A DNA stretch of 64,000 bases from Burkholderiaceae bacterium (GCA_018882795.1 VERJ01000002.1:12049-76048); one strand, 5' to 3'. Shown: positions 34,394 to 55,928, counted from the stretch's first letter. A program made the numbers and translations. The notes: a model not told the origin generated them from the letters alone.

Positions 34394-35530
34394 ATGCGGG
34401 GAGGGGGTATGCCGCCCGACGTTCTGGTTGCGCTTTTCGGGCAGGCCAATATCCAAATCAATGGGTCACAACCCTTCGATATTCAGGTGCATGATTCACG
34501 GGCCTACCGCGCCATTCTGGCCAACTGGTCACTCGGTTTGGGCGAATCCTATATGGATGGTCTCTGGGACTGCGAGCACCTTGATGAACTGATTACACGC
34601 CTGCTGTCGGCAAAGCTCTATGACCGTGCAGTTGGCCTGACAAGGCTGCGTCTGACAGGCCACGCGCTGCGCGCTCGTTTAATGAATCTGCAGTCTCCCA
34701 CCCGCGCATTCCAGGTGGGTGAGACCCATTACAACATTGGCAATGATTTATTTGAGCGGATGCTCGATCCTCTGATGATCTATTCGTGTGCGTATTGGGA
34801 AAGGGCTGCCGATTTGGCACAGGCCCAGGAAGATAAGCTGGAGATGATCTGCCGCAAGCTCGCGCTCAAGCCGGGCGAGCGGCTTTTGGATATTGGCTGT
34901 GGCTGGGGTGGCTTGGCGCACTACGCTGTAACTCGCTATGGGGTGTCGGTTCACGGTATCACGGTGTCAAGGGAGCAAAGGCAGCATGCCTTAGAGCGAT
35001 GTGCGGGGCTACCTGTCACCGTAGATCTCGTGGATTACCGGGAACTTTCTGGGGTGTATGACAAGATCGTGTCGGTCGGTATGTTTGAGCACGTCGGCCC
35101 AAAAAATTATCAGACTTATTTCAATACGACCCATCGACTGCTTGCCGATGAGGGGCTATTTCTGCTGCATACCATCGGAGGAGATGTCACGGCGCCATCT
35201 GTTGATCCATGGATTGATCGCTATATTTTTCCAAATGGGAAAATTCCTGGGCCGAGTGAACTTTTGGCTGCAATGGAGGGCCGCTTTTTGTTGGAAGACT
35301 GGCATAACTTTGGCCCGGATTACGACCGAACACTCATGGCCTGGGAGGCCAACTTTGTGGCCCGATGGCCAGAGATCAGCGCGACCTATGGTCAGCGGTT
35401 TTTTCGTATGTGGCGCTATTACCTCTTGGCCTGCGCGGGATATTTTCGCTCGCGTCAAGGGCAGCTTTGGCAGCTTGTGTTGACGAAACAATCCCGGAAA
35501 AGTCCATATAGGTCTTTTCGATTTTCCTAA
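34394..35530 (+). CDS. cfa: cyclopropane-fatty-acyl-phospholipid synthase
   Basis: It has the CMAS family layout: HYNIGNDLFERMLDPLMIYSCAYW, the SAM motif LLDIGCGWGGLA, and MFEHVGPKNY. The start is uncertain (ATG at 34307, 34394 or 34409). Confidence 0.85.
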   Translation: MRGGGMPPDVLVALFGQANIQINGSQPFDIQVHDSRAYRAILANWSLGLGESYMDGLWDCEHLDELITRLLSAKLYDRAVGLTRLRLTGHALRARLMNLQSPTRAFQVGETHYNIGNDLFERMLDPLMIYSCAYWERAADLAQAQEDKLEMICRKLALKPGERLLDIGCGWGGLAHYAVTRYGVSVHGITVSREQRQHALERCAGLPVTVDLVDYRELSGVYDKIVSVGMFEHVGPKNYQTYFNTTHRLLADEGLFLLHTIGGDVTAPSVDPWIDRYIFPNGKIPGPSELLAAMEGRFLLEDWHNFGPDYDRTLMAWEANFVARWPEISATYGQRFFRMWRYYLLACAGYFRSRQGQLWQLVLTKQSRKSPYRSFRFS

Positions 35531-35933
35531 GGCTAAAAGAAAGCAGCTGATCAATCATCGAAACAACTGACTGTCGGTGTTTGGGGTTGAGCCGATTCAG
35601 TTGTTGGTTCCAGGCTTCGATCTCTGGCAGCAGAAAATGCTTCGGTTTGTCGGCAAGCTGAGGTGGGCCGTGCACAAGTGACTGCTCAGACTTAAAGAGC
35701 TGATTGGCATCAATACCCAACCATTCAAGTAGTGTCTGCATGTGCAGATACTCTGGAACGCTAGATCCGATCAACCAGCGTCGAATAGACTCCTGGGAAA
35801 TGGTTTTGGCACTGCGGCAGCGAAGATTAAATTCACGCGCAATGAATGCGTTAGAAGGGACTTTGCCGAATTTGTGGCGTAGTGCGGCTCGCAGAGCATC
35901 GGAGAGGCTGGATTTGAAGGTGTCGTGACTCAT
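35376..35933 (-). CDS. HTH transcriptional regulator, paralogue 1 (XRE-like)
   Basis: The N-terminus SLSDALRAALRHKFGKVPSNAFIAREFNLRCRSAKTISQESIRRWLIGSSVPE is clearly paralogous to ORF 37616..38119. The last 155 nt overlap the cfa 3' end. Confidence 0.65.
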   Translation of the reverse strand: MSHDTFKSSLSDALRAALRHKFGKVPSNAFIAREFNLRCRSAKTISQESIRRWLIGSSVPEYLHMQTLLEWLGIDANQLFKSEQSLVHGPPQLADKPKHFLLPEIEAWNQQLNRLNPKHRQSVVSMIDQLLSFSLRKIEKTYMDFSGIVSSTQAAKAALDASENIPRRPRGNSATYEKTADHRSR

Positions 35934-35999
35934 GTCGTCCAGTTGCTTTCTTTGTTATGTACTTTTTAAATATTTTTATTTTTTAATTATATGTTCTTA

Positions 36000-36009
36000 C
36001 CCCCCCCCC
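36000..36009. repeat. homopolymeric C10 tract in an AT-rich intergenic region
   Basis: I counted it directly: c at 36000 plus nine c at 36001-36009. The flanks are A/T-rich. Confidence 0.95.
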
Positions 36010-36036
36010 ACTTAAAAAATTAAGTTTTGAAAATTT

Positions 36037-36055
36037 CTCCACATTTGGTGTGGAG
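36037..36055. promoter_or_regulatory. palindromic operator candidate IR1 (CTCCACATTTGGTGTGGAG)
   Basis: It has 7-bp inverted arms and lies between divergent HTH-1 and the Host_attach gene. Nearly the same palindrome recurs at 38195-38213. Confidence 0.45.
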
Positions 36056-36215: not shown

Positions 36216-36662
36216 ATGAAACTGACTCCACGTACCCTCTTGGTGCTGGCTGACGGATCAAAGGCGGTGTTTTTGTGCAATCAAGGCCATAACGGCCGGG
36301 TCCGCCTAAAAGAATTACAGACCTTTTCCCAAAATAATCCGGCAAGCCGTGATCTTGGTTGGGATCGGCCTGGCCGCACCTATGCCCGTTACGGCTTTCG
36401 CCGATCAGCCTATGAAACCCATGATCCACATGACCTTGGTGAGGGCACTTTCTTGAAGGACCTTGCCCAAGCGATAGAGGGGGCGTTGGGTGCTGACGGT
36501 TATGAGCGCGTGGTGCTGATGGCCCCCCCGGAGGCTCTCGGTCAGTTACGGCAGGCGCTTGGCCCTGTGGCCAAAGATAAAGTTGATGGGACCATTGCCA
36601 AGGATTATCTGAACATGCCGCGCACGGAGCTTGAACAGATCTTGATGCGCGGTTTGCAGTAG
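36216..36662 (+). CDS. Host_attach (host attachment protein / eRF1-like baeRF) family protein
   Basis: ORF 36150..36662 is trimmed to ATG 36216. MKLTPRTLLVLADGSKAVFL...DRPGRTYARYGFRRSAYETHDPHD...FLKDLAQAIEGAL...YERVVLMAPPEALGQLRQAL...IAKDYLNMPRTELEQIL matches the family pattern as I recall it. Confidence 0.7.
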   Translation: MKLTPRTLLVLADGSKAVFLCNQGHNGRVRLKELQTFSQNNPASRDLGWDRPGRTYARYGFRRSAYETHDPHDLGEGTFLKDLAQAIEGALGADGYERVVLMAPPEALGQLRQALGPVAKDKVDGTIAKDYLNMPRTELEQILMRGLQ

Positions 36663-36701
36663 ACTTGCGGCCTTTTTGTTGAAGGAAAACTTTAATTGTT
36701 G

Positions 36702-36980
36702 ATGTTGCCCTATTACCTGTGTGCCGACTCAGAGGAAAAACTTTGGACGTGTCTTGAGGCGGCAGGCCTCGCAGATCTATCACCGCCACAGCTGGATGTC
36801 ATGGGCACCCTGTTCGAGGCCACAGGGCTGATCCTGGTAGATGAGCAGGATCACCGCTACCCGCATTTTCGTCCGCTGAAGGGCTATTACGCCGTCGTCC
36901 ATCGGGAACTGAACGAGGCCGAGCGTTCTGTGCTGCCGGTCGTGCCCAGGCCGGCTTCTATTGTCAGAATTTGCGCCTGA
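36702..36980 (+). CDS. hypothetical small protein
   Basis: 92 aa from ATG 36702 (MLPYYLCADSEEKLWTCLEAAGLADL...LKGYYAVVH). It sits between Host_attach and hsp20 on the same strand. I can name no family confidently. Confidence 0.4.
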   Translation: MLPYYLCADSEEKLWTCLEAAGLADLSPPQLDVMGTLFEATGLILVDEQDHRYPHFRPLKGYYAVVHRELNEAERSVLPVVPRPASIVRICA

Positions 36981-37076
36981 GGTTTCCACGGCGCACCCTG
37001 TTCAATCCAATCACAAAGAGTAATGCCATGGCGCTGACCATGATCTGATGGGAGCACCTTATTCATGGAGGCCCCT

Positions 37077-37511
37077 ATGGCAGAGCTCAATCTAACAGAA
37101 GCATTTCTTAATCCCTGGTTGCGTGACTTCCCAAAGCTGTTCATGCCGCCGATCATGTCTCCACTATCGGGGGCTATGGCCGCCGCTGACAGCATCAAGG
37201 TGGATATTCGGGAGCAGCCCGAGATGTATCTGCTCGAGGCTGAGATGTCTGGCGTAAAAAAAGACACACTCAAGGTATCTGTGGATGGCTCCCGGATCAC
37301 GATTGAGGGCGATATCCGCAATGGTGCGGCTCTGCCTAAGGAAGAGCGTCTGATTTGCGGTGAACGCCATGTGGGGCATGTGCAGCGCATGCTTGATCTG
37401 GATGTGGCACTGGATGCTTCCCGATCCACCGCCCATTACGAGGATGGATTACTGACTGTGCTGCTCTATAAGCAGTCTGCTTCGGGGGCCACAACGATCT
37501 CAGTGAATTAG
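37077..37511 (+). CDS. Hsp20/alpha-crystallin family small heat-shock protein
   Basis: The alpha-crystallin domain reads IKVDIREQPEMYLLEAEMSGVKKDTLKVSVDGSRITIEG...ERHVGHVQRMLDLDVALDASRSTAHYEDGLLTVLLYK. ATG 37077 has GGAGG 5 nt upstream; ATG 37065 is an alternative start. Confidence 0.85.
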   Translation: MAELNLTEAFLNPWLRDFPKLFMPPIMSPLSGAMAAADSIKVDIREQPEMYLLEAEMSGVKKDTLKVSVDGSRITIEGDIRNGAALPKEERLICGERHVGHVQRMLDLDVALDASRSTAHYEDGLLTVLLYKQSASGATTISVN

Positions 37512-37549: not shown

Positions 37550-37585
37550 CAAAGGCCGCTGAAATTCCAGCGGCCTTTGTTTTCT
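37550..37585 (+). terminator. rho-independent terminator after hsp20
   Basis: It has a perfect 12-bp stem, CAAAGGCCGCTG-aaattc-CAGCGGCCTTTG, followed by TTTTCT. Confidence 0.8.
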
Positions 37586-37615: not shown

Positions 37616-38119
37616 TTATTCTGGTGCAAATGCGGAGGGGCGAAATCCCGATTTCATCAACTCCAGCATTGCGCGTTTCTGTGCGCCGTCCAGGGCCATC
37701 AGCAATTGCAGCAGCTCAGCATCCTGAGGGCTTGCGCCATTGCTGAGCACTTCTCTGTGATGTTGCAACTCCGTTCTATCAGGCTCCTCCGTGGAGGCAT
37801 GCTGCACTGGTCTTGGATTCGCAGTAACTGGCGAACCAATCGGTGGGCGACTGCCAAAAGGCTGTGCCCTGGGCTTGAGTGCTTCATTGAAATCAAGGTT
37901 GAGCCAATTCACCAGAACCCTTAGGCGTTCCTCCTCGGGCAGAGATACGCCCCGAAGCCATCGTCGGGCGCTTTCTTGCGAGATCGGAGAGGTGTCATAG
38001 GCGCGCAAATTGAACTCGCGGGCCACGACTGCGGCAGAAGGGATTCGACCAAAGCGGCTCCTGAGTGAATCACGGAGAAGCGCTGAGAAATTTTCTTTGA
38101 TGTCATTTGATTTAGCCAT
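37616..38119 (-). CDS. HTH transcriptional regulator, paralogue 2 (XRE-like)
   Basis: ORF 37616..38158 is trimmed to ATG 38119 (MAKSNDIKENFSALLRDSLRSRFGRIPSAAVVAREFNLRAYDTSPISQESARRWLRGVSLPE). It is divergent from the adhesin operon. Confidence 0.65.
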   Translation of the reverse strand: MAKSNDIKENFSALLRDSLRSRFGRIPSAAVVAREFNLRAYDTSPISQESARRWLRGVSLPEEERLRVLVNWLNLDFNEALKPRAQPFGSRPPIGSPVTANPRPVQHASTEEPDRTELQHHREVLSNGASPQDAELLQLLMALDGAQKRAMLELMKSGFRPSAFAPE

Positions 38120-38194
38120 GGATGAAACGATAGGCAAGGGCAGGTACCCCCACTGCAACTCTGGGTTGTAACTTTGGGCTAATTTCCACTAAAC

Positions 38195-38213
38195 CTCCAC
38201 ATTGAATGTGGAA
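38195..38213. promoter_or_regulatory. palindromic operator candidate IR2 (CTCCACATTGAATGTGGAA)
   Basis: TCCACAT-tga-ATGTGGA is a perfect 7-3-7 palindrome. It lies 76 nt upstream of the HTH-2 start and 184 nt upstream of the adhesin start. Confidence 0.45.
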
Positions 38214-38396: not shown

Positions 38397-41300
38397 ATGG
38401 CTGAACAAAACATTTACCTTTATGCGACTCAATCTCCACCAGCGAGTGTCGACACCGGCGAGGGTGATTTTCCTTATGCACCAGGCGTTGCGCTCTCGGA
38501 TGGCACCATTTTCTATACCTGGCGCGACGATCCGTTAAAGACCGACAGTTCAGGAACTGGAATCTTTGATCCCTTCCTGACCATTCAGAAGTCGGGGTCT
38601 GAGACGGGCAGCAATCTCTACAACGGCAGTACTTATGCGACTGGCAATGCAATCAGTTCCAGTGATAACCGGACCAGTCTGCTGGAGATCAGCAAGATTC
38701 CCGTGGTGGGCATTGGCGGTATGGAGTATCTGGAGATTCGGCTTGATCTCAATGAAGTGAGCGGTGGGGGTGGCCCGAAAGCCGAGGTCCGCATGACCGA
38801 TCTCAAGATTTATGGATCGAATAACCCCGGCCTCTCATCCTTCAGTGGCCTGACGCCCCTTTATTCGATTGATCAGGCTGATTTGGACACCACGGTCCAT
38901 ATGTGGGACGACTACAACGGTAGCGGCCGCTCTGATGTGGTGATGCTGATCCCGAAGACCTTTTTCGTATCCAATCCGCAATACCTGTACTTCCAGAGCA
39001 CTTTTCAGGGCACCGATGGCGGGTTTGAAGAGTTTTCGACCCAGATTCTTCAGGCGCCGCTGGATCCTTCGATCACCATCGAAAAAACCGCTGATGTGCT
39101 GAATGCGGATCGCTCTGACGATACCGACGATATTATCGACACCGCTGGTGACATCGTGAGCTTCACCGTATTGGCGACCAATGTGGGCGATGTGGCGCTG
39201 ACCAATCCGACCATCACCGATCCCCTGATTGCGGAGAGTCTGGACATCAACGATGACGGCTTAGTCAACGCCGAGGATATCGTTGGTGGCGATGACAACG
39301 CCAATGGCTTAATGGACGTTGGTGAAACCTGGGTCTGGCAGGGTGAGTACACGGTCACCCAGGACGATATGAATTTGCGCGGCAATTACGACGGTCCGGA
39401 TGAAGATTCCATCAATGACAATGTGATCCGCAATGAAGTAGCGATTCTGACGGATGAGGGCGCCTCTGCGGATAACTTTGCAGATGCTGATCTGGACTAT
39501 AGGCCGCTGCATAGTCTGCAGAAAACCTTCGATGTCTTGAATGCTGATCGCTCGGATGACACCGATGACATCATCGATGAGGCGGGCGACATCGTTCAAT
39601 ACTCATTGAGTGTTAAAAATGACGGCAACATTACCCTGCGGGATGTTGTGATTGACGATCCCCTGATTGCCGATTCTCTGGATACCAATGATGATGGGGT
39701 CGTGGATGTATTGGATTCCACCGGTGGGGATGATGGCAATGGTCTGCTGGATGTGGGCGAGACCTGGACATTTGCCGGCGAATATTCGGTAACCCAGGCC
39801 GACATGGATGCCCGGGGTAACTATGATGAATTAGCGGATGGCACCAACGACAACGTGATTCGCAATGCCGCCAATGCTATCGCCAGCACACTGGATCAGA
39901 CGCTGGATGCTACAGCACGGGCATACACTGACTTGGATTATCGGCCGATTATCACGGTTGAGAAGGTCGATGATGTAATCAATTCAGATCGAACCGATGA
40001 CACAGATGACATTGTGGATGAGGCGGGGGATATCATCAGCTACAGCGTCGAGGTCAAAAATCTAGGCAATATCACCCTCAGTAATGTGGTGGTGACCGAC
40101 CCCCTGATCGCCGACTCCCTGGATATTAATGATGATGGCGTCGTGGATGTGCTGGATGCTACCGGCGGTGATGACAACGCCAATGGTCAGCTTGATGTAG
40201 GCGAGACTTGGACATTCGCCGGCGAGTACACCGTGACGCAGGCGGATATGGATGCCCGCGGCAACTATGATGAGCTGGAGGATGGCACTAACGACAACGT
40301 CATCCGCAACGCAGTCAGCGTTTCTGCGAAAACTCAGGATCAGACCCTGGATGCGACCAATCGCACCTACACGGAACTTGATTATCGGCCTCTGATCAGC
40401 ATCGAAAAAACTCCTGATGTGCTGAATGCAGATCGTACCGACGATCCGGACGATGAGATTGATTCTGCAGGCGACATTATTACTTACGCTATCGCGGTTA
40501 AAAATGAGGGCAACATTACGCTAACGGATGTGGTCCTGACCGATGCATTGATCGCAGACTCCCTTGATACCAACGATGATGGGGTTATCAATGTGTTGGA
40601 TGCTGCCGGAGGTGATAGCAATACCAACGGTCTGCTGGATGTGGGCGAGACCTGGACGTTTGCTGGTGAATATGCGGTGACCCAGGCCGATATTGATAAT
40701 CACGGCAACCATGACAGCATTGATCCGGACACGATCAATGATAATGTCATGCGCAACGTGGCTGCGGTCACGTCCAAGGCGGGTGATCAAAACATCTCTG
40801 ATGACACGATCGCTGATTCCCGGGTGATTTATAGCCCTGAGTTGGTTGTGACCAAGACTGCCAATGTCAGCCAGGTTGATGAGGCTGGTGATGAGATTGT
40901 CTACACCGTGACGGTGGAAAACCGTGGCAATGTGACGCTGACCAATGTGGTGGTGGCCGATCCGCTCTCGGGTCTGGATGAAACCATTGCCTCACTGGCC
41001 CCGGGTGGATCTCAGTCTTTTGATGTGAGCTACTACGCCACCCAGGAGGAGTTTGACACCAACGGTGGTGGGGATGGTGACATCGACAACACCGCTACTG
41101 CGGATAGCAACGAGACCGATGCGGTCACGGCCAGCTACGAAGTCGAACTGCTACGCAGCCCAGAGCTGTGGATTGGCAAGACCGCCAATGTCAGCCAGGT
41201 TGATGAGGCTGGTGATGAGATTGTCTACACCGTGACGGTGGAAAACCGTGGCAATGTGACGCTCACCAATGTGGTGGTGACCGACCCGCTCTCGGGCCTG

Positions 41301-42293
41301 GATCAGACCATTGCCTCACTGGCCCCGGGTGGATCTCAGTCTTTTGATGTGAGCTACTACGCCACCCAGGAGGAGTTTGACACCAACGGTGGTGGCGATG
41401 GTGACATCGACAACACCGCCACCGCTGACAGCGATCAGACCGGTCAAGTCCAAGATAGCCATGAGGTAGGCATTGTCTACGATCCTGCGATGAGTGTTTT
41501 GAAGATGGCCAATGTGGACACCGTCGACGAAGTTGGCGACATGATCCACTACACCATTGAGGTCTCCAACACCGGCAATATCACCCTGACCAACGTAACG
41601 CTGCAAGATACGCTGATCGAAGATTCGCTGGATAACGACATGAATGATGATGGCGTGATCGATGGCGATGACGGTGATGGCCTGCTGGAAGTCGGCGAGA
41701 CCTGGACCTGGCAGGGCGACTACACCGTGACTCAGGCGGATATGGATGCGGCCATGGCAAGCATGGGTGATTACTACATCCGTAACACCGCTACTGGGGA
41801 CAGTGACGAGACCGACCCGGAGACCTCCTCCGAGGAAGTCAGTCTGGTGAAGGTTGCCTTCGAAGGACTCTCTCCCGGCTATTGGAAGAACCACCCCGAG
41901 GACTGGGATGGGCTCTCTTCAGCAGCCAGCTTTGAGACCTTCTTTTTTGGCGGGCCTAAACCAGGTCTTAACTGGAAGGTGAAGACCACGGCCAATGGCA
42001 AGGACAAGTTCGCTGCTTCCCAGGACATCACGATGGAGCAGGCGTTGGCCTTGACAGGAGGTGGCGAGGCTGCCCTTGCAAGGCAGGCGGTTGCCGCGGT
42101 GCTTAACTCCCGGGATGAGGACGTGACTTATCGTTTTACCGAGTCTCAGATCAAGGAGTGGGTGTCCGAAGCGCTCTCTGGTCAGCCCGTTGATCTGGAA
42201 AACGATGGGGTGATCGAGTTTGCTGCTGGAACAGCAGCCATCGAGGGAGTCAAGAACCTTCTGGACTTCAACAACAACCTCGAGCTGATCTGA
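38397..42293 (+). CDS. large repetitive secreted protein (7 DUF11/DUF7507-like Ig-fold repeats), putative T1SS-exported adhesin
   Basis: 1298 aa with a strong SD (TAGGAGG) and no signal peptide. An N-terminal domain of about 220 aa is followed by four modules of about 147 aa, two 108-aa modules and one further module of the type xKTADV..AGDxIxYTxxVxNxGNxTLTNV. The unique C-terminal domain of about 150 aa ends ...NNNLELI. The stop lies 1 nt before the T1SS ABC gene. Confidence 0.85.
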   Translation: MAEQNIYLYATQSPPASVDTGEGDFPYAPGVALSDGTIFYTWRDDPLKTDSSGTGIFDPFLTIQKSGSETGSNLYNGSTYATGNAISSSDNRTSLLEISKIPVVGIGGMEYLEIRLDLNEVSGGGGPKAEVRMTDLKIYGSNNPGLSSFSGLTPLYSIDQADLDTTVHMWDDYNGSGRSDVVMLIPKTFFVSNPQYLYFQSTFQGTDGGFEEFSTQILQAPLDPSITIEKTADVLNADRSDDTDDIIDTAGDIVSFTVLATNVGDVALTNPTITDPLIAESLDINDDGLVNAEDIVGGDDNANGLMDVGETWVWQGEYTVTQDDMNLRGNYDGPDEDSINDNVIRNEVAILTDEGASADNFADADLDYRPLHSLQKTFDVLNADRSDDTDDIIDEAGDIVQYSLSVKNDGNITLRDVVIDDPLIADSLDTNDDGVVDVLDSTGGDDGNGLLDVGETWTFAGEYSVTQADMDARGNYDELADGTNDNVIRNAANAIASTLDQTLDATARAYTDLDYRPIITVEKVDDVINSDRTDDTDDIVDEAGDIISYSVEVKNLGNITLSNVVVTDPLIADSLDINDDGVVDVLDATGGDDNANGQLDVGETWTFAGEYTVTQADMDARGNYDELEDGTNDNVIRNAVSVSAKTQDQTLDATNRTYTELDYRPLISIEKTPDVLNADRTDDPDDEIDSAGDIITYAIAVKNEGNITLTDVVLTDALIADSLDTNDDGVINVLDAAGGDSNTNGLLDVGETWTFAGEYAVTQADIDNHGNHDSIDPDTINDNVMRNVAAVTSKAGDQNISDDTIADSRVIYSPELVVTKTANVSQVDEAGDEIVYTVTVENRGNVTLTNVVVADPLSGLDETIASLAPGGSQSFDVSYYATQEEFDTNGGGDGDIDNTATADSNETDAVTASYEVELLRSPELWIGKTANVSQVDEAGDEIVYTVTVENRGNVTLTNVVVTDPLSGLDQTIASLAPGGSQSFDVSYYATQEEFDTNGGGDGDIDNTATADSDQTGQVQDSHEVGIVYDPAMSVLKMANVDTVDEVGDMIHYTIEVSNTGNITLTNVTLQDTLIEDSLDNDMNDDGVIDGDDGDGLLEVGETWTWQGDYTVTQADMDAAMASMGDYYIRNTATGDSDETDPETSSEEVSLVKVAFEGLSPGYWKNHPEDWDGLSSAASFETFFFGGPKPGLNWKVKTTANGKDKFAASQDITMEQALALTGGGEAALARQAVAAVLNSRDEDVTYRFTESQIKEWVSEALSGQPVDLENDGVIEFAAGTAAIEGVKNLLDFNNNLELI
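39066..40832 (+). repeat. four tandem coding repeats of 438/441/444/444 bp inside the adhesin gene
   Basis: Module starts at 39066, 39504, 39945 and 40389 were located by the recurring P-x-x-x-x-(E/Q)K...NADR(S/T)DD(T/P)DD motif and the GATCG(C/A/T) landmark. Confidence 0.85.
40833..41480 (+). repeat. two near-identical tandem 324-bp coding repeats inside the adhesin gene
   Basis: Copies start at 40833 and 41157 (SPEL...). About the first 250 nt of each copy differ at only a handful of positions; the last 60 nt or so diverge. Confidence 0.9.
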
Positions 42294-47675: not shown

Positions 47676-47788
47676 GCCGAAGCTCTTGCTGCCGCTCACA
47701 GAATCCCTCCTGGGCCGAGAGATTGCGGCCCACTGTGCGGTCTCCGGGCATTGCTCGGGGACTTTTATTCACTTTTTGGAGGTAAAGC

Positions 47789-47968
47789 ATGAAACACATG
47801 TCTCTGTTGAAAAAGTTTGTGAAAGATGATCGCGGCGTCAGTGCAATCGAGTATGGATTGCTGGCTACCCTGATTGCAGTAGCCATCATTGTGGGCGCAA
47901 CTGCGCTGGGCAACGCACTGGATGCCAAGTTCAGCTCGGTGGCCACGACGGTGACAAACGGGAAATAA
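47789..47968 (+). CDS. flp: Flp family type IVb pilin
   Basis: Not in the ORF track (59 aa). My own translation is MKHMSLLKKFVKDDRGVSAIEYGLLATLIAVAIIVGATALGNALDAKFSSVATTVTNGK. It has the Flp motif G/VSAIEYGLL and an SD, TGGAGG. Confidence 0.9.
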   Translation: MKHMSLLKKFVKDDRGVSAIEYGLLATLIAVAIIVGATALGNALDAKFSSVATTVTNGK

Positions 47969-48504: not shown

Positions 48505-49305
48505 ATGGCCAATCGGCGGGCGATTATTTTTCTTTTGCTTTCCCTACTGACCGGCGCAACAGCGGTCGGAGTAGCGGCGTTTTGGATGAAACAAAAAATG
48601 TCAGATGCAACCGTTTCGGTTGTAGTCGCCAGCCGCGATCTTCTTGCTGGTGAAAAACTTACTGCTGATAATCTCAAAGTTGTGAGCTGGCCTAGTGGTG
48701 CACATATCAAAGGGTCATCCACCACCGTACAGTCCCTGGACGGCAGGGTAACTGCAGCCACGGTCGTGATGGGTGAACCGATCCTGGAGGGCCGGCTTGC
48801 ACCTGTTGGTAGCAAGGCGGGCCTAAGTGCCATCATCACGCCGGGCCATCGTGCCCTGACAGTGAAAGTCAACGAGGTTGTGGGCGTGGCGGGCTTTGCC
48901 ATGCCGGGGAATTATGTGGATGTCCTCGTTACGATTCATCAAGACAACAAACCTCCGATTTCAAAAATCGTTCTAGAGAAAATCTTGGTGCTGGCCACGG
49001 CCCAGGAGCACATGGTGCGCGACGAGGCAAAACCCAAGGTGGTGAATGCGGTTACGTTGGAGGTCACGCCAGAGCAGGCGGAAAAGCTTGATCTCGCAAG
49101 AAGTGTCGGCACGCTTTCCATGGCCCTGCGCAACCAGATTGATCAGCAACAAGTCACTACGCGGGGAGCGTTGATTGGAGATGTTCTGAAGGCGCCATCA
49201 GTATCAATGCCGAAGGCCAGTGCACGCGAGGTGGTTGCTGGCTCGGGAGTCCCTGAGATCGAGGTTATTCGGGGTGTTGTGCGCACCAATGTCAGTGTCC
49301 GTTGA
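48505..49305 (+). CDS. cpaB: Flp pilus assembly protein CpaB/RcpC
   Basis: It has an N-terminal TM, a SAF-like domain (VVVASRDLLAGEKLTADNL) and an RcpC C-terminal domain (VDVLVT...ILVLA...VTLEVTPEQAEKL). Confidence 0.85.
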   Translation: MANRRAIIFLLLSLLTGATAVGVAAFWMKQKMSDATVSVVVASRDLLAGEKLTADNLKVVSWPSGAHIKGSSTTVQSLDGRVTAATVVMGEPILEGRLAPVGSKAGLSAIITPGHRALTVKVNEVVGVAGFAMPGNYVDVLVTIHQDNKPPISKIVLEKILVLATAQEHMVRDEAKPKVVNAVTLEVTPEQAEKLDLARSVGTLSMALRNQIDQQQVTTRGALIGDVLKAPSVSMPKASAREVVAGSGVPEIEVIRGVVRTNVSVR

Positions 49306-49328
49306 GATTCTTTTCAGGCTGGAGAACT

Positions 49329-50885
49329 ATGAAAAATAAAAGTTTGCAACTGTTGATGGCTGTCGGCTTTGGATTGATGGTCCATACCGTAAGCGCGGCC
49401 CCACAGTCGGATAACCCAACTTCTTCGGCAGCCGATCTGCCGACCAAGCGGGTGGAAGCCCCGCTGGCTTTAGTGTCGGGCAAGTCAATTGTTGTGCCAA
49501 TCGAGGGCGGCATCACGCGAGTCTCTGTGGCCAACCCAGAGATGGCCGATGTCACCGTCATTGCTGGGCGTGAGCTCTATGCCATTGGTAAGAAAGTGGG
49601 CGCTACGAATATCTTTCTTTGGAATAAGACGGGTCAGATCACGGTCATAGATGTAGTGGTTTCTGGCGACACACTGAGTCTACAAAGCAAACTCCGTGAG
49701 TTGATGCCGACCGAGCAGCAGCTACATGTGAGCTCTGCCGGTGAGGCCCTGGTGCTAACTGGACAGGTGGCTGATGCCGCGAAAGTCCAGCGCGCGGTTC
49801 TGATTGCTGAGCAGTTTTCAGAGAAGAAGATCATCAATCTCTTGGGTGTAGGCGAGTTGCCCCAGGTTCTGCTGGAGGTCAAGGTCGCTGAGGTGTCTAA
49901 AAAGCTGACCGATAAGCTCGGCATGTCATTGGGCGTGAATGGCGCAAGGGGATCGTTTCAGTATCAGATCTTGGGCAATCTGTTGACTGGCGGGGTGTTC
50001 AGCACGCCGCAGGGCACCGGATCGGGAATTGGTCTGACAAAGGGAAATGACAGCTTTAAGCTAGAGGCGGAGATTAAAAATGGTCTGATCAAGGTCCTTG
50101 CTGAGCCGAACATCATCGCTGTGAGCGGTCAGGAAGGTGCGTTTTTGGCCGGTGGCAAGATCTTCATTCCGGTACCACAGTCGGGCGGAACAGGCATCTC
50201 GGCGATCACCTTGGAAGAGCGTGAGTATGGTGTTGGCCTGCGCTTTCTGCCGACAGTGCTGGAGGGTGGCAAGATCAATCTTCGGGTAACACCGGAAGTG
50301 TCCGAGCTTGCGCAGCAGGGCACCACCGTTGCGTCGGGGAATATCACCACCGTGCTGCCCACAATTTCCACCCGCCGTGCGTCCACCACGGTGCAGCTGA
50401 TGGATGGCCAGAGCTTTGCAATTGGCGGTCTGATCAAAAACAATGTTTCAGAGAGCATTTCTGGTTTTCCTTTCCTGAGTGAGCTACCGATTCTGGGGGC
50501 ATTGTTTCGCAGCAGCGAATTTATCAATGACCGCAGCGAGCTGATGTTCCTGGTCACACCTAGATTGGTTAAACCCTTGGCCACTCCCGCAGCGCTGCCC
50601 ACCGATGGGTTCATTCCGCCCTCTCGATTCGAATTCATGATGAATGGCCAGATGCAGGGTAAACCTGCGCCATCAAAGGAGCCTGTGCGATTGGATAGAA
50701 AGCCAAGCCTATCGCGGGCCGCACCACCTGCCGATGTCGCCGCAACCGTAGACCCTGTTGATTCACGCGATCCGAGTGCTGCGGATCCCGTCGCTGTAGA
50801 CCCTATTCAGGCAAGCACGATTCCAGCAGATGCTGTCGATACTGCTGATCTGAACATCGATATCCCGAAGGAGGGCAACGAATGA
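49329..50885 (+). CDS. cpaC: Tad secretin CpaC/RcpA
   Basis: It has a signal peptide, a BON-like N domain and a secretin core (VLAEPNIIAVSGQEGAFLAGG...GLRFLPTV...IGGLI...PFLSELPILGALFRS). It ends in a Pro/Asp/Ala-rich C-terminal tail of about 80 aa. The start is ATG 49329, after GGAG. Confidence 0.9.
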   Translation: MKNKSLQLLMAVGFGLMVHTVSAAPQSDNPTSSAADLPTKRVEAPLALVSGKSIVVPIEGGITRVSVANPEMADVTVIAGRELYAIGKKVGATNIFLWNKTGQITVIDVVVSGDTLSLQSKLRELMPTEQQLHVSSAGEALVLTGQVADAAKVQRAVLIAEQFSEKKIINLLGVGELPQVLLEVKVAEVSKKLTDKLGMSLGVNGARGSFQYQILGNLLTGGVFSTPQGTGSGIGLTKGNDSFKLEAEIKNGLIKVLAEPNIIAVSGQEGAFLAGGKIFIPVPQSGGTGISAITLEEREYGVGLRFLPTVLEGGKINLRVTPEVSELAQQGTTVASGNITTVLPTISTRRASTTVQLMDGQSFAIGGLIKNNVSESISGFPFLSELPILGALFRSSEFINDRSELMFLVTPRLVKPLATPAALPTDGFIPPSRFEFMMNGQMQGKPAPSKEPVRLDRKPSLSRAAPPADVAATVDPVDSRDPSAADPVAVDPIQASTIPADAVDTADLNIDIPKEGNE

Positions 50886-51208
50886 TTTCAGTCACTTATA
50901 CCACTATGCGTTGGGCAGGTCTGGTCGCTATTGGATCACTGATGGGCTGTGCCCATCAGTATGCACCCGAAGCCACATTCGGGCTTACTGTCCAGCAGAG
51001 CATCCGCCAGCAATCAGTACGGGTGAATGGTGTTGGCCACGATCGCATTGAGCCGGGATTCGATGGTGCTGCAGCCAAGGCGGTGATGGATCGTTATGTT
51101 CGCAGTTATGAGCAGCCACAACCGCTGGGCAATGTCCTTCGGCTTGGTGTGGGAACACCGCTCACCGGCACAGGAATGGCAACGGCCACTCCCTCGGCAG
51201 CGAGGTAA
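50882..51208 (+). CDS. small Tad-locus lipoprotein (possibly DUF3613-like)
   Basis: It has a lipobox (GSLMGC) and is 108 aa. Its ATGA overlaps the cpaC stop. The family assignment is from memory only. Confidence 0.5.
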   Translation: MISVTYTTMRWAGLVAIGSLMGCAHQYAPEATFGLTVQQSIRQQSVRVNGVGHDRIEPGFDGAAAKAVMDRYVRSYEQPQPLGNVLRLGVGTPLTGTGMATATPSAAR

Positions 51209-51210
51209 GC

Positions 51211-52497
51211 ATGAGTGAAACTAATGCCATACTGGATCACGCGCGCCTGAAGTCTCACGTGCACAGCCAACTGCTTAAGATCCTGGATCTGTCAGTCATG
51301 GAGCGTCTATCCTCAGATGATTTGCGGGTCGAACTCTCTGGGGCAGTAAAACGTATTGTGAACGACGAACGCATTACGTTGGATCCATCGGATCTAGGCC
51401 AATTGGTACTCAATATCCAGAATGAGGTGATGGGTCTGGGCCCAATTGAACCGCTGATTGCCGATCCGACTGTCTCCGATATTCTGGTCAATGGTCCCAT
51501 GTCAATCTATGTGGAGCGCTATGGGCGGCTTGAGCCTACATCCGTGCGATTTTCTAATCATGATCATGTGTTGCGAATCATTGAGAAAATCGTTTCTCGG
51601 GTGGGCAGAAGAATCGATGAGTCCAGTCCCATGGTGGATGCCCGTCTGCCCGATGGGTCGCGGGTCAATGCCATCATTCCGCCGCTGGCGCTTGATGGCC
51701 CTGTTCTATCGATCCGACGATTCAGTGTTACACCTTTTGGAATCAAAGAACTGATTGATCACGGCACCCTATCGGCTGACATGGCAAGTGTGATCGAGTC
51801 CCTGGTCCGTTATAAAACCAATGTGCTGATCTCTGGCGGGACAGGTAGCGGCAAGACCACACTGCTAAATGTGCTTTCTTCGTTTGTACCCGCAGATGAG
51901 CGGATTATCACCATCGAAGATGCTGCTGAGCTTCGGCTTCAGCAGCCCCATGTGGTGAGGCTCGAGACCCGTCCTGCCAACGTTGAAGGCAAGGGCGAGA
52001 TCAGCCAACGCTCTTTGGTGAAAAACAGTCTACGCATGCGTCCGGATCGCATTGTGGTCGGCGAGGTCCGCGGTGCCGAGGTGCTCGACATGCTGCAAGC
52101 CATGAACACTGGCCACCAAGGATCGATGACCACAATTCATGCGAATTCTCCCAGGGACGCCATGATTCGGCTGGAGAATATGGTGAGTCTTGCCGGCATC
52201 AAGGTGGGTATTCATCCCATTCGGCGTCAGATTGCTTCAGCAATCAATGTCGTGATTCAGGTCGCACGACTCTCCGATGGAACGCGAAAAGTACTGAGCG
52301 TGCAAGAGATCACGGGCATGGAGGGTGACATGATCGAGATGCAAGAAATCTTCTCCTATGAACAGCATGGACTCTCCGCTGAAGGTAGGGTCAATGGGGC
52401 TTTTGTGGCCTCGGGTATTCGGCCCAGATTTGCAGAGCATATCGCTCGTGAAGGGTATCAGCTTCCGGATCATCTTTTTGTGCCACCCGTGCAGTAG
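51211..52497 (+). CDS. cpaF: Tad pilus ATPase CpaF/TadA
   Basis: It has Walker [10 protein letters not shown], an Asp box, Walker B ([10 protein letters not shown]) and a His box (TTIHANS). Confidence 0.95.
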
Positions 52498-52511: not shown

Positions 52512-53477
52512 ATGATGCAAAGCTTGTTCTTTGGATTACTGTTTGTGTCTGCGGCACTATTGGCTGGTGCGGCCATGATGTTTTGGCAATACCTCTCTGA
52601 TCTCGGTTCGGCCTCTCGTGCGGTCATGCTATCTGCGGTGGACTCAGCGGATATGCCTACCCAGGGCAGGGTCTATCGAGACTTGCGCGTGAGCGCTTCC
52701 GCCTGGATGGATCAGTGGCTAAGATCTAATTCAAAAGTGCAGTCTGTTCAGCAAATGGTCGCCCAATCAGGCGTGCGTTTGTATGTGGATCAACTCTTGG
52801 CCATCAGCGTTTCCTTGGGAGCATTTTTGGCCGTAGGCGCTGGGCTGCTGGGCTGGCCGATCACCTTTGCGGTCCCCCTTGGCACAGTCGGACTTATGCT
52901 GCCATGGTTGGTACTGCGTTATCGAAAGAAAAAGCGACTCCAGGTGATCGAGGAGCAGTTGCCAGATGCGCTGGATGCGATATCCCGGGCGATGCAGGCG
53001 GGGAATTCTCTGGCCGGTGCGTTGGCTGCGGTCAGCAAGGAATCCCCCGACCCACTGGGCGGAGAGTTGCGGATTGTCTCCGAGGAAATCAACTTCGGCC
53101 GCTCGGTGAAGGATGGATTGCTGGGCTTTTCTCAGCGGCTCGATAGCCTGGATATTCGCTACTTTGTGTTGGCGGTGTTGATCCATAGCCAGACGGGTGG
53201 CAATCTCTCCTCCCTGTTGTCAAGCCTGGCCACGTTGATTCGCGAGCGGATGCGGCTAAAGCGTAGGGCCCGGGTCTTGTCGGCCGAGGGGCGACTCTCA
53301 GGATGGGTACTCACCCTTCTACCTTTCATCACCGCGTTTCTTATTTATCTGATGAATCCGGATTTTTTAAAGGTCCTGTGGACGACATCCACTGGGATTC
53401 TCTTACTGCAGATCAATGCGGTCATGATGACGATTGGCCTGTATTGGATGTGGAAGATCGTTCATTTTCGAATCTAG
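52512..53477 (+). CDS. tadB: Tad platform protein TadB (T2SSF family)
   Basis: It has the T2SSF domain (LPDALDAISRAMQAGNSL) and three TM segments. Confidence 0.85.
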   Translation: MMQSLFFGLLFVSAALLAGAAMMFWQYLSDLGSASRAVMLSAVDSADMPTQGRVYRDLRVSASAWMDQWLRSNSKVQSVQQMVAQSGVRLYVDQLLAISVSLGAFLAVGAGLLGWPITFAVPLGTVGLMLPWLVLRYRKKKRLQVIEEQLPDALDAISRAMQAGNSLAGALAAVSKESPDPLGGELRIVSEEINFGRSVKDGLLGFSQRLDSLDIRYFVLAVLIHSQTGGNLSSLLSSLATLIRERMRLKRRARVLSAEGRLSGWVLTLLPFITAFLIYLMNPDFLKVLWTTSTGILLLQINAVMMTIGLYWMWKIVHFRI

Positions 53478-53486
53478 GGGTCGATC

Positions 53487-54434
53487 ATGTCATCTCTTGC
53501 AATTGCGTTGTTGATGCTGTTGTTTTTTCTAGCATCGGGTCTGACCTGGATTCTGATTGGCTTTGGATTTGCCTTGCGGCCCCTGATATCGAGAGGCCCG
53601 GGATGGAATCTTGATGCGCTTAAGCGCGAAGCAGCCCATCAGATGCTGGGCCTTTCGCAGCGGCTATCCCCGATTCTCAAACCCATGACGCCCGAATCCG
53701 CGCTCAGCCCTGATTGGCTTGAGTCCCCATTACGATTGAAACTCATTCGGGCGGGGTTTCGTGGCCCATCTACGGTGCCGATCTATTTTTCGCTCAAGGT
53801 GTTATCGGCTGGTCTGTTGGTGATACTGGTGTTACTACTCAACCTCCTAGCCAAGTGGGATCTTCCCACGATCACGCTGGTCACGCTGGTGATGGTGGCA
53901 ATAGGAATTGGGTTCTACCTCCCGGATCTGGTGTTGCGCATTCGTACTGCTGATCGGCAACGCTGGATTCTGGAGCAGCTGCCGGATAGTCTGGATCTGA
54001 TGCGTATCTGCCTTGAGGCTGGCCTTGGTCTTGATGCAGCGATTCTGCGGGTGAGCCAGGAATTCAAGGGCGTCTGCCCCCCGCTCTACCAGGAGCTCCA
54101 TACGATTACCTTAGAGCTGCGCGCCGGTAGTGCCCGAAACGAGGCCTTACGACACTTTGCCGCAAGAACTGGGTTGCAGCAGGTCAATTCTATGGTATCG
54201 ACCCTGATTCAGTCAGATCGCTTCGGCACTGGCATCGCAGACACGATCCGTATCCATGCCGAGCACTTGCGGCTGGAACGTCGACTGAAGGCGGAAGAGA
54301 CCGCCGCAAAGATGGCCACCAAATTACTTTTTCCTCTGGTGTTCTGCATTTTCCCAGCGCTGTTACTGGTTCTGGTGGGACCAGCGGGTATCACAGTGAA
54401 GCAGCATCTTTCCCCGGAAACTATCAGCCGATGA
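53487..54434 (+). CDS. tadC: Tad platform protein TadC (T2SSF family)
   Basis: It has the T2SSF domain (LPDSLDLMRICLEAGLGLDAAI) and is paired with tadB. Confidence 0.85.
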   Translation: MSSLAIALLMLLFFLASGLTWILIGFGFALRPLISRGPGWNLDALKREAAHQMLGLSQRLSPILKPMTPESALSPDWLESPLRLKLIRAGFRGPSTVPIYFSLKVLSAGLLVILVLLLNLLAKWDLPTITLVTLVMVAIGIGFYLPDLVLRIRTADRQRWILEQLPDSLDLMRICLEAGLGLDAAILRVSQEFKGVCPPLYQELHTITLELRAGSARNEALRHFAARTGLQQVNSMVSTLIQSDRFGTGIADTIRIHAEHLRLERRLKAEETAAKMATKLLFPLVFCIFPALLLVLVGPAGITVKQHLSPETISR

Positions 54435-54883
54435 TCAAACTCATGAGTATTCAAGTCTTTCCCCGGATTCGAAAACGCCCCTGTCGAGGCGCATCGGCGA
54501 TTGAATTCGCCTTGATGTTGCCCCTGTTGCTTCTTCTGCTCTTTGGCATTATTGAAACCAGCATCGCGCTGTATGACAAGGCCATTATCACTAATGCTTC
54601 TCGGGAGGCAGCCCGTGCAGGCGTGGTCATGAGTAAGACTCGATTGTCAGATTCAGAGATTGAGCAGGTCGCACTAAGTTACTGTGGCAACCGGTTGATC
54701 AGCTTTGGGGCGCTCTCCAGTGCACCCAAGGTAACGGTACAGCGGCCTGCGAGTCCGATGACTAACGATCCCTTAACCGTCTCTATCGCCTACACTTATT
54801 CTGGGTTTGGACTAGGGCGTCTTTATGCTGCGTGGGTGGGCCCTATTCAACTCACAGCCACTACGGTCATGACCTATGAATAA
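54431..54883 (+). CDS. TadE/TadF-like pseudopilin
   Basis: The N-terminus GASAIEFALMLPLLLLLLFGIIE is a TadE-like motif. The protein is 150 aa. Confidence 0.8.
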   Translation: MIKLMSIQVFPRIRKRPCRGASAIEFALMLPLLLLLLFGIIETSIALYDKAIITNASREAARAGVVMSKTRLSDSEIEQVALSYCGNRLISFGALSSAPKVTVQRPASPMTNDPLTVSIAYTYSGFGLGRLYAAWVGPIQLTATTVMTYE

Positions 54884-55928
54884 ATTAAGTGCACCCAGAG
54901 GCGTGATTGCAATGGTTGTGGCCTTGCTGACCACCGTGCTGATCGCATGCGCAGCGCTGGCTGTGGATCTGGCCTATGTGTTTGTTGTGCGCAATGAACT
55001 GCAGAATGCGGCCGATGCCGCCGCACTCTCTGGGGCAGGGCGCCTGTATACCAACAACTCCGGCCCGAATTGGAGTGATGCCGAACTGCAGGCAGCCACA
55101 GTGACACAACTCAATCGTAGTGAGTATCGGGCGATTCAGGATCCTGAGATCACTGTCGGTTACTGGTCTGGTGGTGCAACCCCACCCGCGATGGAGTCAT
55201 CCGGTACCACACCGTCCGCAGGTGATTTGGCCGCCGTCATGGTGAGAATTCAAAAGGTTCAGGCCAATCGTAATGGTCCGGTCCGCCCCCTTTTCGCCAC
55301 TGTGATGGGGAAAAAAGAAATCGAGGTGGGTGCGATGGCGATTGCCGCCGTCGGTTCGCCCAGCTATGTTGGTGAGCATGCCTTATTTCCTTTTGTCATG
55401 AGTAAGTGCATGTATGACACCTACTGGAATGCATCAGCTTCTCCGCCGGGGCCCAGGAATGACCCAAAGACTGGCCAGCCCTATGTGTTTGTGATTGAGC
55501 CAGAGCCCAAAAAACCTGGTACTCAGCCGTGCGAGACGGGGGGGCGTGGGGTCTGGACAACTTTTTTTAATGTCAACGCGGGTACAAATGTAGTCAAGGA
55601 TTTAATCACTACATTTAATTTGGAGCCTCTGAAAATTGGCGATCAAATCTGGATTCCCTCGGGTATTACTGCCGTCAATTATGGGTTGACGCAGGCCTGC
55701 TCTGAGGCAGGCAACGGCTCCTGCGGTGTTGTCTCGGTTGCCGTTGTACAGGATCTACTGCAAAAGACCAATGCCACAGTTGTTGGGTTCTCCTGCTTGA
55801 AGATCAAGGATGCCAATCAGGGTAATAAAACCCTTACGGTGCAGATGACCAAGAACTGTGTGCCACCTGGTTCGGGTGGAAGTGGCCCAGACTACGGCAG
55901 CCGCACACCACCCCGGCTGGTGAACTGA
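54876..55928 (+). CDS. TadG-like pilus assembly protein
   Basis: The N-terminus GVIAMVVALLTTVLIACAALAVDLAYVFVVRNELQNAADAAALSGA is typical of the TadG/Tad_N family. The protein is 350 aa. Confidence 0.75.
   Translation: MNKLSAPRGVIAMVVALLTTVLIACAALAVDLAYVFVVRNELQNAADAAALSGAGRLYTNNSGPNWSDAELQAATVTQLNRSEYRAIQDPEITVGYWSGGATPPAMESSGTTPSAGDLAAVMVRIQKVQANRNGPVRPLFATVMGKKEIEVGAMAIAAVGSPSYVGEHALFPFVMSKCMYDTYWNASASPPGPRNDPKTGQPYVFVIEPEPKKPGTQPCETGGRGVWTTFFNVNAGTNVVKDLITTFNLEPLKIGDQIWIPSGITAVNYGLTQACSEAGNGSCGVVSVAVVQDLLQKTNATVVGFSCLKIKDANQGNKTLTVQMTKNCVPPGSGGSGPDYGSRTPPRLVN

Follow-up and report, generated by a model that had tools for sequence, protein, structure and literature searches.

The stretch analysed here, 64,000 nucleotides (nt) or 64 kb of contig VERJ01000002.1 from a Burkholderiaceae bacterium (the window, whose coordinates are used for the locus throughout), carries a locus in which the genes of a fibrillar adhesin and a type I secretion system (T1SS) are joined through a WecB-like gene to those of a Tad pilus. 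Its anatomy was read directly from an open reading frame (ORF) listing combined with Pfam and NCBIfam profile searches. Fifteen co-directional genes lie on the + strand from the adhesin start at 38397 to the end of tadG at 55928; the widest gap, preceding flp, measures 113 nt, and the remaining junctions are gaps of 1–36 nt, several of just 1–3 nt, or overlaps of 1, 4 and 8 nt. These values, re-derived from the ORF listing, bear out the gene count, common direction and tight spacing given in an earlier reading of the same DNA (the original prediction), which had also put the largest gap at 113 nt. To the left of the run lie two candidate regulator genes, HTH-1 and HTH-2 (HTH, helix-turn-helix), and between them a baeRF12-orf94-Hsp20 cluster. 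The locus is flanked on the left by cfa, encoding cyclopropane-fatty-acid synthase (34307–35530, + strand, convergent with HTH-1), and on the right by a P-type ATPase gene. Related loci, for the collection of which the WecB-like protein served as junction marker, are numbered from L001.

Genes and features of the locus

The first of the fifteen genes encodes a fibrillar protein of 1298 amino acids (aa) with CLIPPER/CLIPPER_2 repeats (38397–42293, + strand), which is a predicted T1SS substrate. It begins with an N-terminal domain (residues 1–227), continues with seven repeats and closes with a C-terminal domain measuring about 155 aa, and it matches DUF7507 (1e-99, in seven stretches) and DUF11 (5e-32) of Pfam as well as TIGR01451 (2e-53). 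CLIPPER is the new name of DUF11, a CnaA-like fold, and the residues for the isopeptide (a Lys-Asn bond with a catalytic Asp/Glu) are not retained by all DUF11 domains (PMC12617251). The protein contains no cysteine, and its content of D+E is 19.8% versus 4.4% for K+R. Since neither a GGxGxD nor a HemolysinCabind match was present in the adhesin and CLIPPER repeats were found instead, the designation as an RTX adhesin was rejected, and the calcium-folding giant adhesin proposed earlier does not hold in the RTX sense. Eight DxNxDG loops are, however, inserted in five of the seven repeats, and because these loops resemble EF-hands, calcium binding through them rather than through RTX repeats is plausible. 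The N- and C-terminal domains gave nothing useful in Pfam, NCBIfam and PHROGs, and no more than 18 homologues were found for the C-terminal domain.

Separated from the adhesin gene by 1 nt, the gene of a PrtD-type T1SS ABC permease/ATPase follows (42295–44049, + strand; TIGR01842 at 662 bits, cut-off 510), whose product is devoid of a C39 or CLD N-terminal domain. Next to it, an HlyD-family T1SS adaptor of 306 aa (44053–44973, + strand; TIGR01843 at 260 bits in three stretches, cut-off 209) and a TolC-family outer-membrane channel (44973–46415, + strand; Pfam OEP 9e-35, TIGR01844 at 147 bits with a cut-off of 225) are encoded, so that the ABC protein, the adaptor and the channel stand together. 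Given that no hydrophobic N-terminal signal is visible in the adhesin sequence, and in view of its composition and of the conserved adjacency of the adhesin and T1SS genes, export of the adhesin by the adjoining T1SS is predicted, which is the standard inference for such an arrangement. The best-matching stretch of the adaptor places its residues 125–305 on positions 243–421 of the 422-position TIGR01843 model; judged from these coordinates alone, the protein appears to lack about 120–140 residues of the helical hairpin region (model positions about 100–240). The adaptor measures 306–307 aa in all relatives, compared with approximately 420–480 aa for typical HlyD/AprE proteins, and this fixed short length suggests a different periplasmic geometry.

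The WecB-like protein is encoded at 46470–47675 (+ strand; Epimerase_2 2e-39), its true start lying ten codons inside a longer ORF that opens at 46440. Its structural model (pTM 0.80) has E. coli WecB (1f6d) as top Foldseek match with an E-value of 3e-27 and a TM-score of about 0.8, and the sequence itself matches PDB entries at about 2e-39; according to this model, the GT-B fold is kept. In contrast, three epimerase motifs are replaced in the window protein (HRRE by DASE, H(V/I)EAGLR by YLASSIN and DSGG by DAQD), and its TIGR00236 score of 179 bits is under the equivalog cut-off of 210. Because these motifs are replaced and HRRE is lost in every member of the subfamily, the term pseudo-epimerase used in the original prediction is a fair description. 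Peculiar to the subfamily is a C-terminal NWSRNxxLTPRAFEPF extension. The subfamily comprises about 30 clusters with identities down to 38–41%, below which the values fall abruptly to about 30%, the level of ordinary WecB. Every readable context of its members is a Tad locus of the type described here, and the protein probably serves the Tad-linked system as an accessory that is non-catalytic or has been re-purposed. A profile scan of reference genomes gave seven loci of the subfamily, all in metagenome-assembled genomes (MAGs), and a query of the same genomes with the single protein retrieved no relative. Between the window and L001, the WecB-like proteins share 51% identity compared with 60–89% for the flanking T1SS and Tad proteins, which is consistent with a relaxed or shifted constraint.

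The Tad part of the locus, all of it on the + strand, comprises a 59-aa Flp prepilin (47789–47968; Flp_Fap 2e-16, processing motif RG/VSAIEY), the A24 prepilin peptidase CpaA/TadV (47998–48468; Peptidase_A24 9e-15), CpaB/RcpC (48505–49305; RcpC 6e-31, SAF 6e-12), the secretin CpaC/RcpA (49302–50885; Secretin 5e-42, T2SS-T3SS_pil_N 3e-19), the secretion ATPase CpaF/TadA (51211–52497; T2SSE 1e-68, 89% identity in L001), the platform proteins TadB (52512–53477; T2SSF 8e-15) and TadC (53487–54434; T2SSF 6e-19), and the minor pilins TadE (54431–54883; TadE 1e-17) and TadG-like (54876–55928; Tad 1e-10, Tad_C 1e-6). Between the secretin and the ATPase gene, a 108-aa ORF with a lipobox-like LMGC is located (50882–51208). 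The ten Tad genes of the original prediction are therefore present, but one of them is this unclassified ORF, and CpaE/TadZ is not among them: no such domain was found in the locus, a six-frame search of the window for the ParA/MinD-type Walker A motif KGGxGK[ST] gave no match, and TadZ/CpaE is likewise absent from all related loci read. The 108-aa ORF has no match in Pfam, NCBIfam or PHROGs. It shares 39–69% identity with its counterparts in L001, L002, L003 and L010, its position is held by ORFs of 89–115 aa in all relatives, and it encodes a probable lipoprotein that is a candidate pilotin. The flp gene is preceded by a leader (47697–47763, + strand) that consists of a conserved non-coding block, CACAGAAT (47697–47704), and two hairpins, the second of which (47739–47763) is GC-rich, spans 11 bp and is followed by TTTATT. 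The fold of the gap between the WecB-like gene and flp was not better than that of shuffled sequences (z = -1.44), and our claim is therefore limited to comparative hairpins and does not extend to a structured RNA.

HTH-2 (37616–38119, - strand, 167 aa) is divergent from the adhesin operon and 100% identical to the hypothetical protein FGM18_01015 (NCBI tag) of a Burkholderiaceae MAG. HTH-1 (35376–35933, - strand) is a 185-aa ORF whose product is a divergent paralogue within the same regulator family; the two share 32% identity in the family alignment. Pfam and NCBIfam, including HTH_3 and HTH_XRE, gave no match for HTH-1, HTH-2 or ten distant relatives; PHROGs yielded nothing useful for HTH-2 and a weak match of HTH-1 to a transcriptional regulator (E 0.004). 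In an AlphaFold (AF2) model of the family, residues 1–80 have a pLDDT above 90, and the top Foldseek matches in the PDB are all DNA-binding domains of the XRE, lambda-cI, P22 c2 and SinR kind, with root-mean-square deviations of 2–3 Å over about 77 columns and weak E-values of 0.009 to 1. The model thus supports an Xre fold, that is, a five-helix HTH DNA-binding domain. A profile search of 1.84 billion representatives retrieved 744 relatives at E ≤1e-3 and 28 at E ≤1e-30, and a few longer distant ones bear weak PAS-like tails.

The 3′ end of HTH-1 overlaps the convergent cfa ORF by 155 nt on opposite strands (35376–35530). By tblastn, L001 and L007 have orthologues of HTH-1 at the corresponding place (51% and 42% identity, respectively), and the ORF is annotated as a gene in a JGI contig. 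Its homology in L001 and L007 likewise reaches the cfa-proximal end of each locus. Since conservation is confined to about the first 115–123 residues, the tail that overlaps cfa may be unconstrained read-through.

The cluster between the two regulator genes begins with a Host_attach/baeRF family 12 gene (36216–36662, + strand; 148 aa from the ATG, PF18856 1e-31, PF10116 1e-27), the exact product of which is on record in four contigs. Proteins of baeRF family 12 consist of a stand-alone release-factor-like core and have been proposed to act on ribosomes under stress (PMC6514570). Because the protein belongs to this ribosome-associated, release-factor-like family, the label Host_attach is not evidence for attachment. 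It is followed by orf94 (36696–36980, + strand), a conserved ORF of 94 aa with 55–71% identity in L001, L005, L007 and L009 and no Pfam, NCBIfam or PHROG match. The third gene encodes the small heat-shock protein Hsp20 (37077–37511, + strand, 144 aa; Pfam HSP20 1e-11), whose exact 144-aa product is on record. The Hsp20 ORF already opens at 37065, and the product in public assemblies begins at the second ATG at 37077, 5 nt downstream of a GGAGG. A strong hairpin of 12 bp (8 GC) with T-runs at 37550–37579, between the convergent Hsp20 and HTH-2 genes, is likely a bidirectional terminator.

Both regulator cassettes contain a palindrome of the form TCCACA-N5-TGTGGA, which occurs exactly twice in the 64 kb (36038–36054 and 38196–38212), at a shuffled expectation for the CCACA-N5-TGTGG core of 0.07, or of 0.25 with one mismatch permitted. 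The first operator-like copy, IR1 (CTCCACAtttggTGTGGAG, 36037–36055), is situated between HTH-1 and the baeRF12-orf94-Hsp20 genes, 105 nt 5′ of HTH-1; it additionally receives a weak terminator score on the + strand, as a hairpin with T6 behind it, and its counterpart at the equivalent place in L001 is degenerate (TCCACATCCGGTGTGTA). The second, IR2 (TCCACAttgaaTGTGGA, 38196–38212), lies in the intergenic region of HTH-2 and the adhesin gene, 77 nt 5′ of the former and 185 nt 5′ of the adhesin start. In the regulator-divergent intergenic DNA of relatives, the core CCACAT-N3-ATGTGG is exact in L002, L010 (twice) and L032; L005 and L009 retain CACATCTCATGTG of it, and the copies of L001 and L036 are degenerate. 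We take this recurrence as the phylogenetic footprint of a candidate operator, and from it we infer DNA binding by the regulators. The duplicated regulator/operator cassettes of the original prediction are thus recovered as paralogous ORFs with footprinted palindromes. A second near-palindrome, TGCAAC-N5-GTTGTA (TGCAACtctggGTTGTA, 38154–38170), is located between IR2 and the HTH-2 start and kept in L001 (TGCAACTGTGGGTTGTA) and L005 (TTGCAACTAAGAGTTGTAA); it may be the site of another factor or a promoter element. A relaxed scan of the HTH-2/adhesin intergenic region gave no sigma-70 site with at least 8 of 12 matching positions.

Conservation and arrangement in relatives

The linkage of the T1SS and adhesin genes with the Tad genes was observed directly in at least ten independent MAG or metagenome contigs with cfa and P-type ATPase flanks. 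The neighbourhood survey that had been suggested as a check, in which a linkage found nowhere else would have counted against the prediction, therefore spoke for it, as T1SS, WecB-like and Tad genes are linked in relatives too. Five architectures were distinguished. Architecture A is that of the window and of L001 (identical to L006, from a Burkholderiaceae MAG) and has the full order from cfa through HTH-1, baeRF12-orf-Hsp20, HTH-2, adhesin-ABC-adaptor-channel-WecB-like-flp...tadG to the P-type ATPase gene, with identities of 51–89%. In architecture B (L003, L004, L005, L007, L008, L009), the genes and flanks are the same and flp–tadG is inverted, converging on the WecB-like gene. Architecture C (L002, L010, L032, L036) comprises Hsp20, two tandem regulator paralogues and WecB-like-flp...tadG, has no T1SS or adhesin and lies in a different neighbourhood. 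Architecture D (L020), in yet another neighbourhood, combines Hsp20 and one regulator with a 583-aa adhesin, the T1SS, the WecB-like gene and flp. In architecture E (L022–L025), a regulator gene is divergent from flp...tadG, and neither the WecB-like gene nor the T1SS is present.

The Hsp20 gene adjoins the regulator genes in architectures A to D, and the regulator family is divergent from this type of Tad genes in every context read, including the loci of architecture E that have no WecB-like gene. In the latter, an unclassified ORF of about 246 aa takes the place of the WecB-like gene directly 5′ of flp (L024, 8144–8884); in L022 (8697–9752), it was apparently called as a fusion with flp. 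This ORF may be a functional replacement of the WecB-like gene. Second small ORFs beside the regulator in L022 and L024 were considered as regulator paralogues and rejected, since they are not paralogous.

The fifteen genes could form a single operon in which one promoter beside HTH-2 drives them all, with the pilus and the adhesin being produced stoichiometrically. Co-directional genes with gaps of no more than 113 nt and several overlaps would be expected of such an operon, the order is the same in L001 and L020, and no good sigma-70 site was found before flp. However, in at least six relatives flp–tadG is inverted and yet still adjoins the T1SS and WecB-like genes. In every lineage, flp is preceded by the block CACAGAAT and by hairpins particular to the lineage, and this holds for architecture B (e.g., L003) too, where nothing co-directional lies upstream of flp and the leader is still present, and in the window the 113-nt gap itself holds the 11-bp GC-rich hairpin with the T-rich run behind it. 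Because of the inversion and the conserved leader, flp–tadG is probably a transcription unit of its own. A single operon therefore appears unlikely to us, and the co-expression of one 15-gene transcript, as put forward in the original prediction, is doubtful. If flp–tadG is a separate unit, it follows that the coupling of pilus and adhesin would be regulatory and not a matter of read-through alone.

A looser relationship has also to be considered, in which the T1SS/adhesin, Tad and Hsp20 operons are independent neighbours and the regulators control no more than their own operon or one beside it. The Tad and regulator genes do occur without T1SS and adhesin in L002, L010 and L022–L025, the palindromes are restricted to the regulator-divergent regions, and baeRF12 and Hsp20 are general stress-type proteins. 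Nevertheless, the adjacency has outlasted both an inversion and a change of neighbourhood. The WecB-like gene bridges the modules, being the last gene of the T1SS unit in architecture B and the first of the Tad unit in architecture C, and the same palindrome stands at both regulator cassettes. Mere neighbourhood is thus quite unlikely, and a jointly controlled attachment locus is the reading that we prefer.

With respect to its origin, the locus has a GC content of 0.51–0.56, slightly below the 0.57–0.60 in the left part of the window, and distant lineages carry its core module in neighbourhoods that differ, as might be the case for a horizontally acquired genomic island. However, integrase and transposase domains were absent from the genes scanned in and around the region, and the only tRNA of the window is 10 kb away from the locus (nothing else in the window was detected with Rfam at the gathering threshold), which agrees with the original prediction that integrase, transposase and flanking tRNA are missing. 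In addition, the sampling of genes elsewhere in the window gave ordinary housekeeping genes, and relatives with WecB-like proteins of just 50–53% identity are likewise flanked by cfa and the P-type ATPase gene. Given that diverged relatives share the flanks and that mobility genes, as well as boundaries of the tRNA or direct-repeat kind, are lacking, we regard the locus as an inherited chromosomal one. The term island, in its mobile sense, has to be dropped, and horizontal acquisition as such an element is very improbable.

Two further genes of the window were recorded. Just 5′ of cfa, a PucC/LhaA-family protein of the major facilitator superfamily is encoded (32687–34108; Pfam PUCC 1e-153), and no photosynthesis genes were found among its scanned neighbours. 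In a photolyase-family ORF of 751 aa (7090–9345), the photolyase domain begins only at residue 252; the approximately 250 N-terminal residues are without assignment, and the start of the ORF may be over-extended.

Homopolymer tracts and the proposed control of attachment

The C10 run at 36000–36009 is the sole G/C run of at least 8 nt in the window. The C10/G10 tract is contained in full within the 18-nt spacer of a promoter-like site of HTH-1 (35986–36015, - strand), which has a perfect -10 element (TATAAT, 35991–35986), TTAAGT as -35 element (36015–36010) and an overall match of 9/12. The C10 tract that had been reported in a promoter spacer was accordingly found where it had been placed. 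Differences in tract length were seen directly between assemblies, from which, and not from reads, all lengths were taken. The sequence is C10-A-C in the window and C12 in the JGI contig L042, an A-to-C change within 1681 nt of 99.76% identity. A Logan contig, identical to the window bar the same A/C position, breaks off within the tract after at least 13 C, and a second Logan contig begins inside it. When metagenome contigs were scanned for patterns matching the flanks of the C tract, six AT-rich sequences came up, all of them unrelated.

Further tracts are present in relatives. In those of architecture C, a run of G8–G11 is located 0–2 nt 5′ of the ATG of the second regulator, at the position of a ribosome-binding site (L002 9085–9093; L010 9098–9108; L032 3698–3707; L036 3683–3690; L037 1974–1982), and its length differs between two contigs with an identical first regulator. 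About 30 nt 5′ of the WecB-like/Tad genes, G10 (L036, 2820–2829), G7 (L037, 1114–1120) and G9 (L038) were found in assemblies whose flanks have 0–2 mismatches in 668 nt. At this site, a sister lineage (L032–L035) carries the interrupted sequence GGGGGCGG, which is identical in four contigs. Variable uninterrupted tracts alongside stable interrupted ones are the pattern expected of contingency loci, and we consider this interpretation plausible.

It is possible, at somewhat less than even odds, that the tracts are ordinary spacer or Shine-Dalgarno-like sequence and that their length differences are homopolymer errors of assembly or sequencing. All lengths stem from short-read metagenome assemblies, and two of the observations are contig ends. 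The difference between the window and L042 is a substitution and not an indel, HTH-1 has no tract at all in L001 and L007, and the run before the second regulator ATG could serve as a ribosome-binding site. On the other hand, different lineages repeatedly carry G/C runs of 7–11 nt in the regulatory DNA of this system, at three positions in all; the window and L010 contain no other long G/C runs, and L002 none that are longer. Also to be set against errors of sequencing or assembly are the three near-identical assemblies that differ only in the length of the tract and the interrupted version that is the same in all four of its contigs. Phase-variable control of attachment is plausible.

Taken together, we propose a four-part attachment locus under the control of regulators and palindromes and subject to switching by the C tract, inherited on the chromosome of an uncultured freshwater clade of Burkholderiaceae, and we assign a probability of about 0.6 to this explanation as a whole. 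Each Xre-fold regulator gene is divergent from one operon, HTH-1 from baeRF12-orf94-Hsp20 and HTH-2 from adhesin-T1SS-WecB-like. The regulators would bind the palindromes as dimers and, when bound, set the activity of the divergent, non-consensus promoters, and flp–tadG, behind a structured leader of its own, would be transcribed separately. Located in the promoter spacer of HTH-1, the poly-C tract would change its length by slipped-strand mispairing, thereby alter the supply of HTH-1 and render attachment heterogeneous within the population. The anatomy, the conservation, the folds, the motif loss and the differing tract lengths of the assemblies are observations, whereas DNA binding, the transcription units, the secretion of the fibre and the switching are predictions.

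Several observations weigh against this explanation. All relatives are uncultured, and HTH-1 is missing in some of them (L005, L009), so that a layout with two regulators is not shared by all. L001, L005 and L007 have the palindrome in a degenerate form, and no operator-type palindrome was found 5′ of flp when the window and its relatives were compared. The -35 element of HTH-1 is weak, the site was not called by a strict sigma-70 scan, and differences in homopolymer length between short-read assemblies can be artefacts of assembly or sequencing. The adhesin is without RTX repeats, and its C-terminal secretion signal is a putative one. Finally, the WecB-like protein keeps some active-site residues (QG[DE], E295 and GDG), and on account of these another enzymatic activity is possible. 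A more far-reaching version, which we put forward only tentatively and hold to be rather doubtful, would be a distinct, TadZ-independent Tad subtype of planktonic freshwater Burkholderiaceae that has recruited a catalytically dead WecB-like protein as a new component of the machine or of its maturation, and in which the pair of unclassified regulators, wired through hypermutable poly-C/G tracts, generate attached and free subpopulations that co-deploy the pilus and an isopeptide-type fibre exported by a T1SS with a short adaptor.

Comparison with known systems

The flow of carbon is shaped by the choice of abundant lake bacteria between a free life and one on particles and algae, a choice whose genetic basis is poorly known in uncultured Burkholderiaceae. 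The present locus offers concrete candidates, namely a pilus type without the usual TadZ hub, a pseudo-enzyme tied to the pilus, and a regulator family that has no database model and comes with a defined candidate operator. If our interpretation is true, hypervariable tracts could make attachment a bet-hedging trait. As building blocks, Tad pili, PrtD-type T1SSs, CLIPPER fibres, Xre-fold regulators and homopolymer switching are all familiar, and the locus is confined so far to uncultured freshwater Burkholderiaceae. In our literature searches (Limnohabitans and Tad pili; Flp pilus, 2-epimerase and type I secretion), the contiguous order was not described, and the same applies there to the TadZ-less subtype with a small lipoprotein, the Tad-specific WecB-like protein, the 306-aa adaptor and the regulator family with its palindrome.

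With the tad locus of Aggregatibacter and the pilA-cpaA-F locus of Caulobacter, the present one shares the set from Flp to a TadG-like protein in the usual order. It differs in that TadZ/CpaE is missing from the locus and the window, that a 108-aa lipoprotein-like ORF is found where CpaD/CpaE would be, and that a WecB-like protein without epimerase motifs and Xre-fold regulators of its own, outside any Pfam model, belong to it. The WecB-like protein has the GT-B fold in common with the non-hydrolysing UDP-GlcNAc 2-epimerase WecB/MnaA; here, however, three motifs are replaced, a C-terminal extension is present and the protein is found in Tad-linked loci only.

Phase variation through homopolymers in promoters is known from the C-stretches of Bordetella fim and the poly-G of Neisseria porA and opc. 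The tract described here resembles these as a G/C run of 10 in the spacer of the -35 and -10 elements, 5′ of a regulator of surface structures, and in the length differences between near-identical sequences. In contrast to them, the candidate tract precedes a regulator gene and not a structural gene.

The adhesin is similar to RTX or LapA-type proteins with LapBCE as a large acidic repeat protein that has no Sec signal and is encoded beside ABC, adaptor and TolC genes. It differs by the lack of RTX nonapeptides, the locus contains no retention control of the LapG/LapD type, the ABC protein is of the PrtD type, and the adaptor has just 306 aa. Tandem CLIPPER/CLIPPER_2 stalk repeats, as in fibrillar adhesins of Gram-negative bacteria, link it to the CLIPPER adhesins (PMC12617251). 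Whereas the characterised example of that group has an OmpA-like anchor and disulfides, the present protein has no cysteine and no anchor domain, is encoded directly 5′ of a T1SS and carries DxNxDG loops in five of its seven repeats.

In P. aeruginosa, the two-component system PprAB couples Flp/Tad pili, the BapA adhesin with its T1SS and CupE fimbriae, according to two reports (PMC3510237, PMC6821963). The likeness lies in the pairing of a Tad-type pilus with a large T1SS adhesin; in place of the two-component system described there, contiguous genes and small one-component Xre-fold candidate regulators are found here, and the adhesin is of a different type with CLIPPER repeats. The claim that no such system had been described therefore stands for the contiguous arrangement, which was not found in our literature searches, but not for the co-regulation of an adhesin with Tad pili, for which PprAB is a precedent. 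We take the PprAB-regulated loci to be unlinked on the chromosome, and a T1SS fibre physically linked to a Tad pilus would be a compact counterpart of this dispersed regulon.

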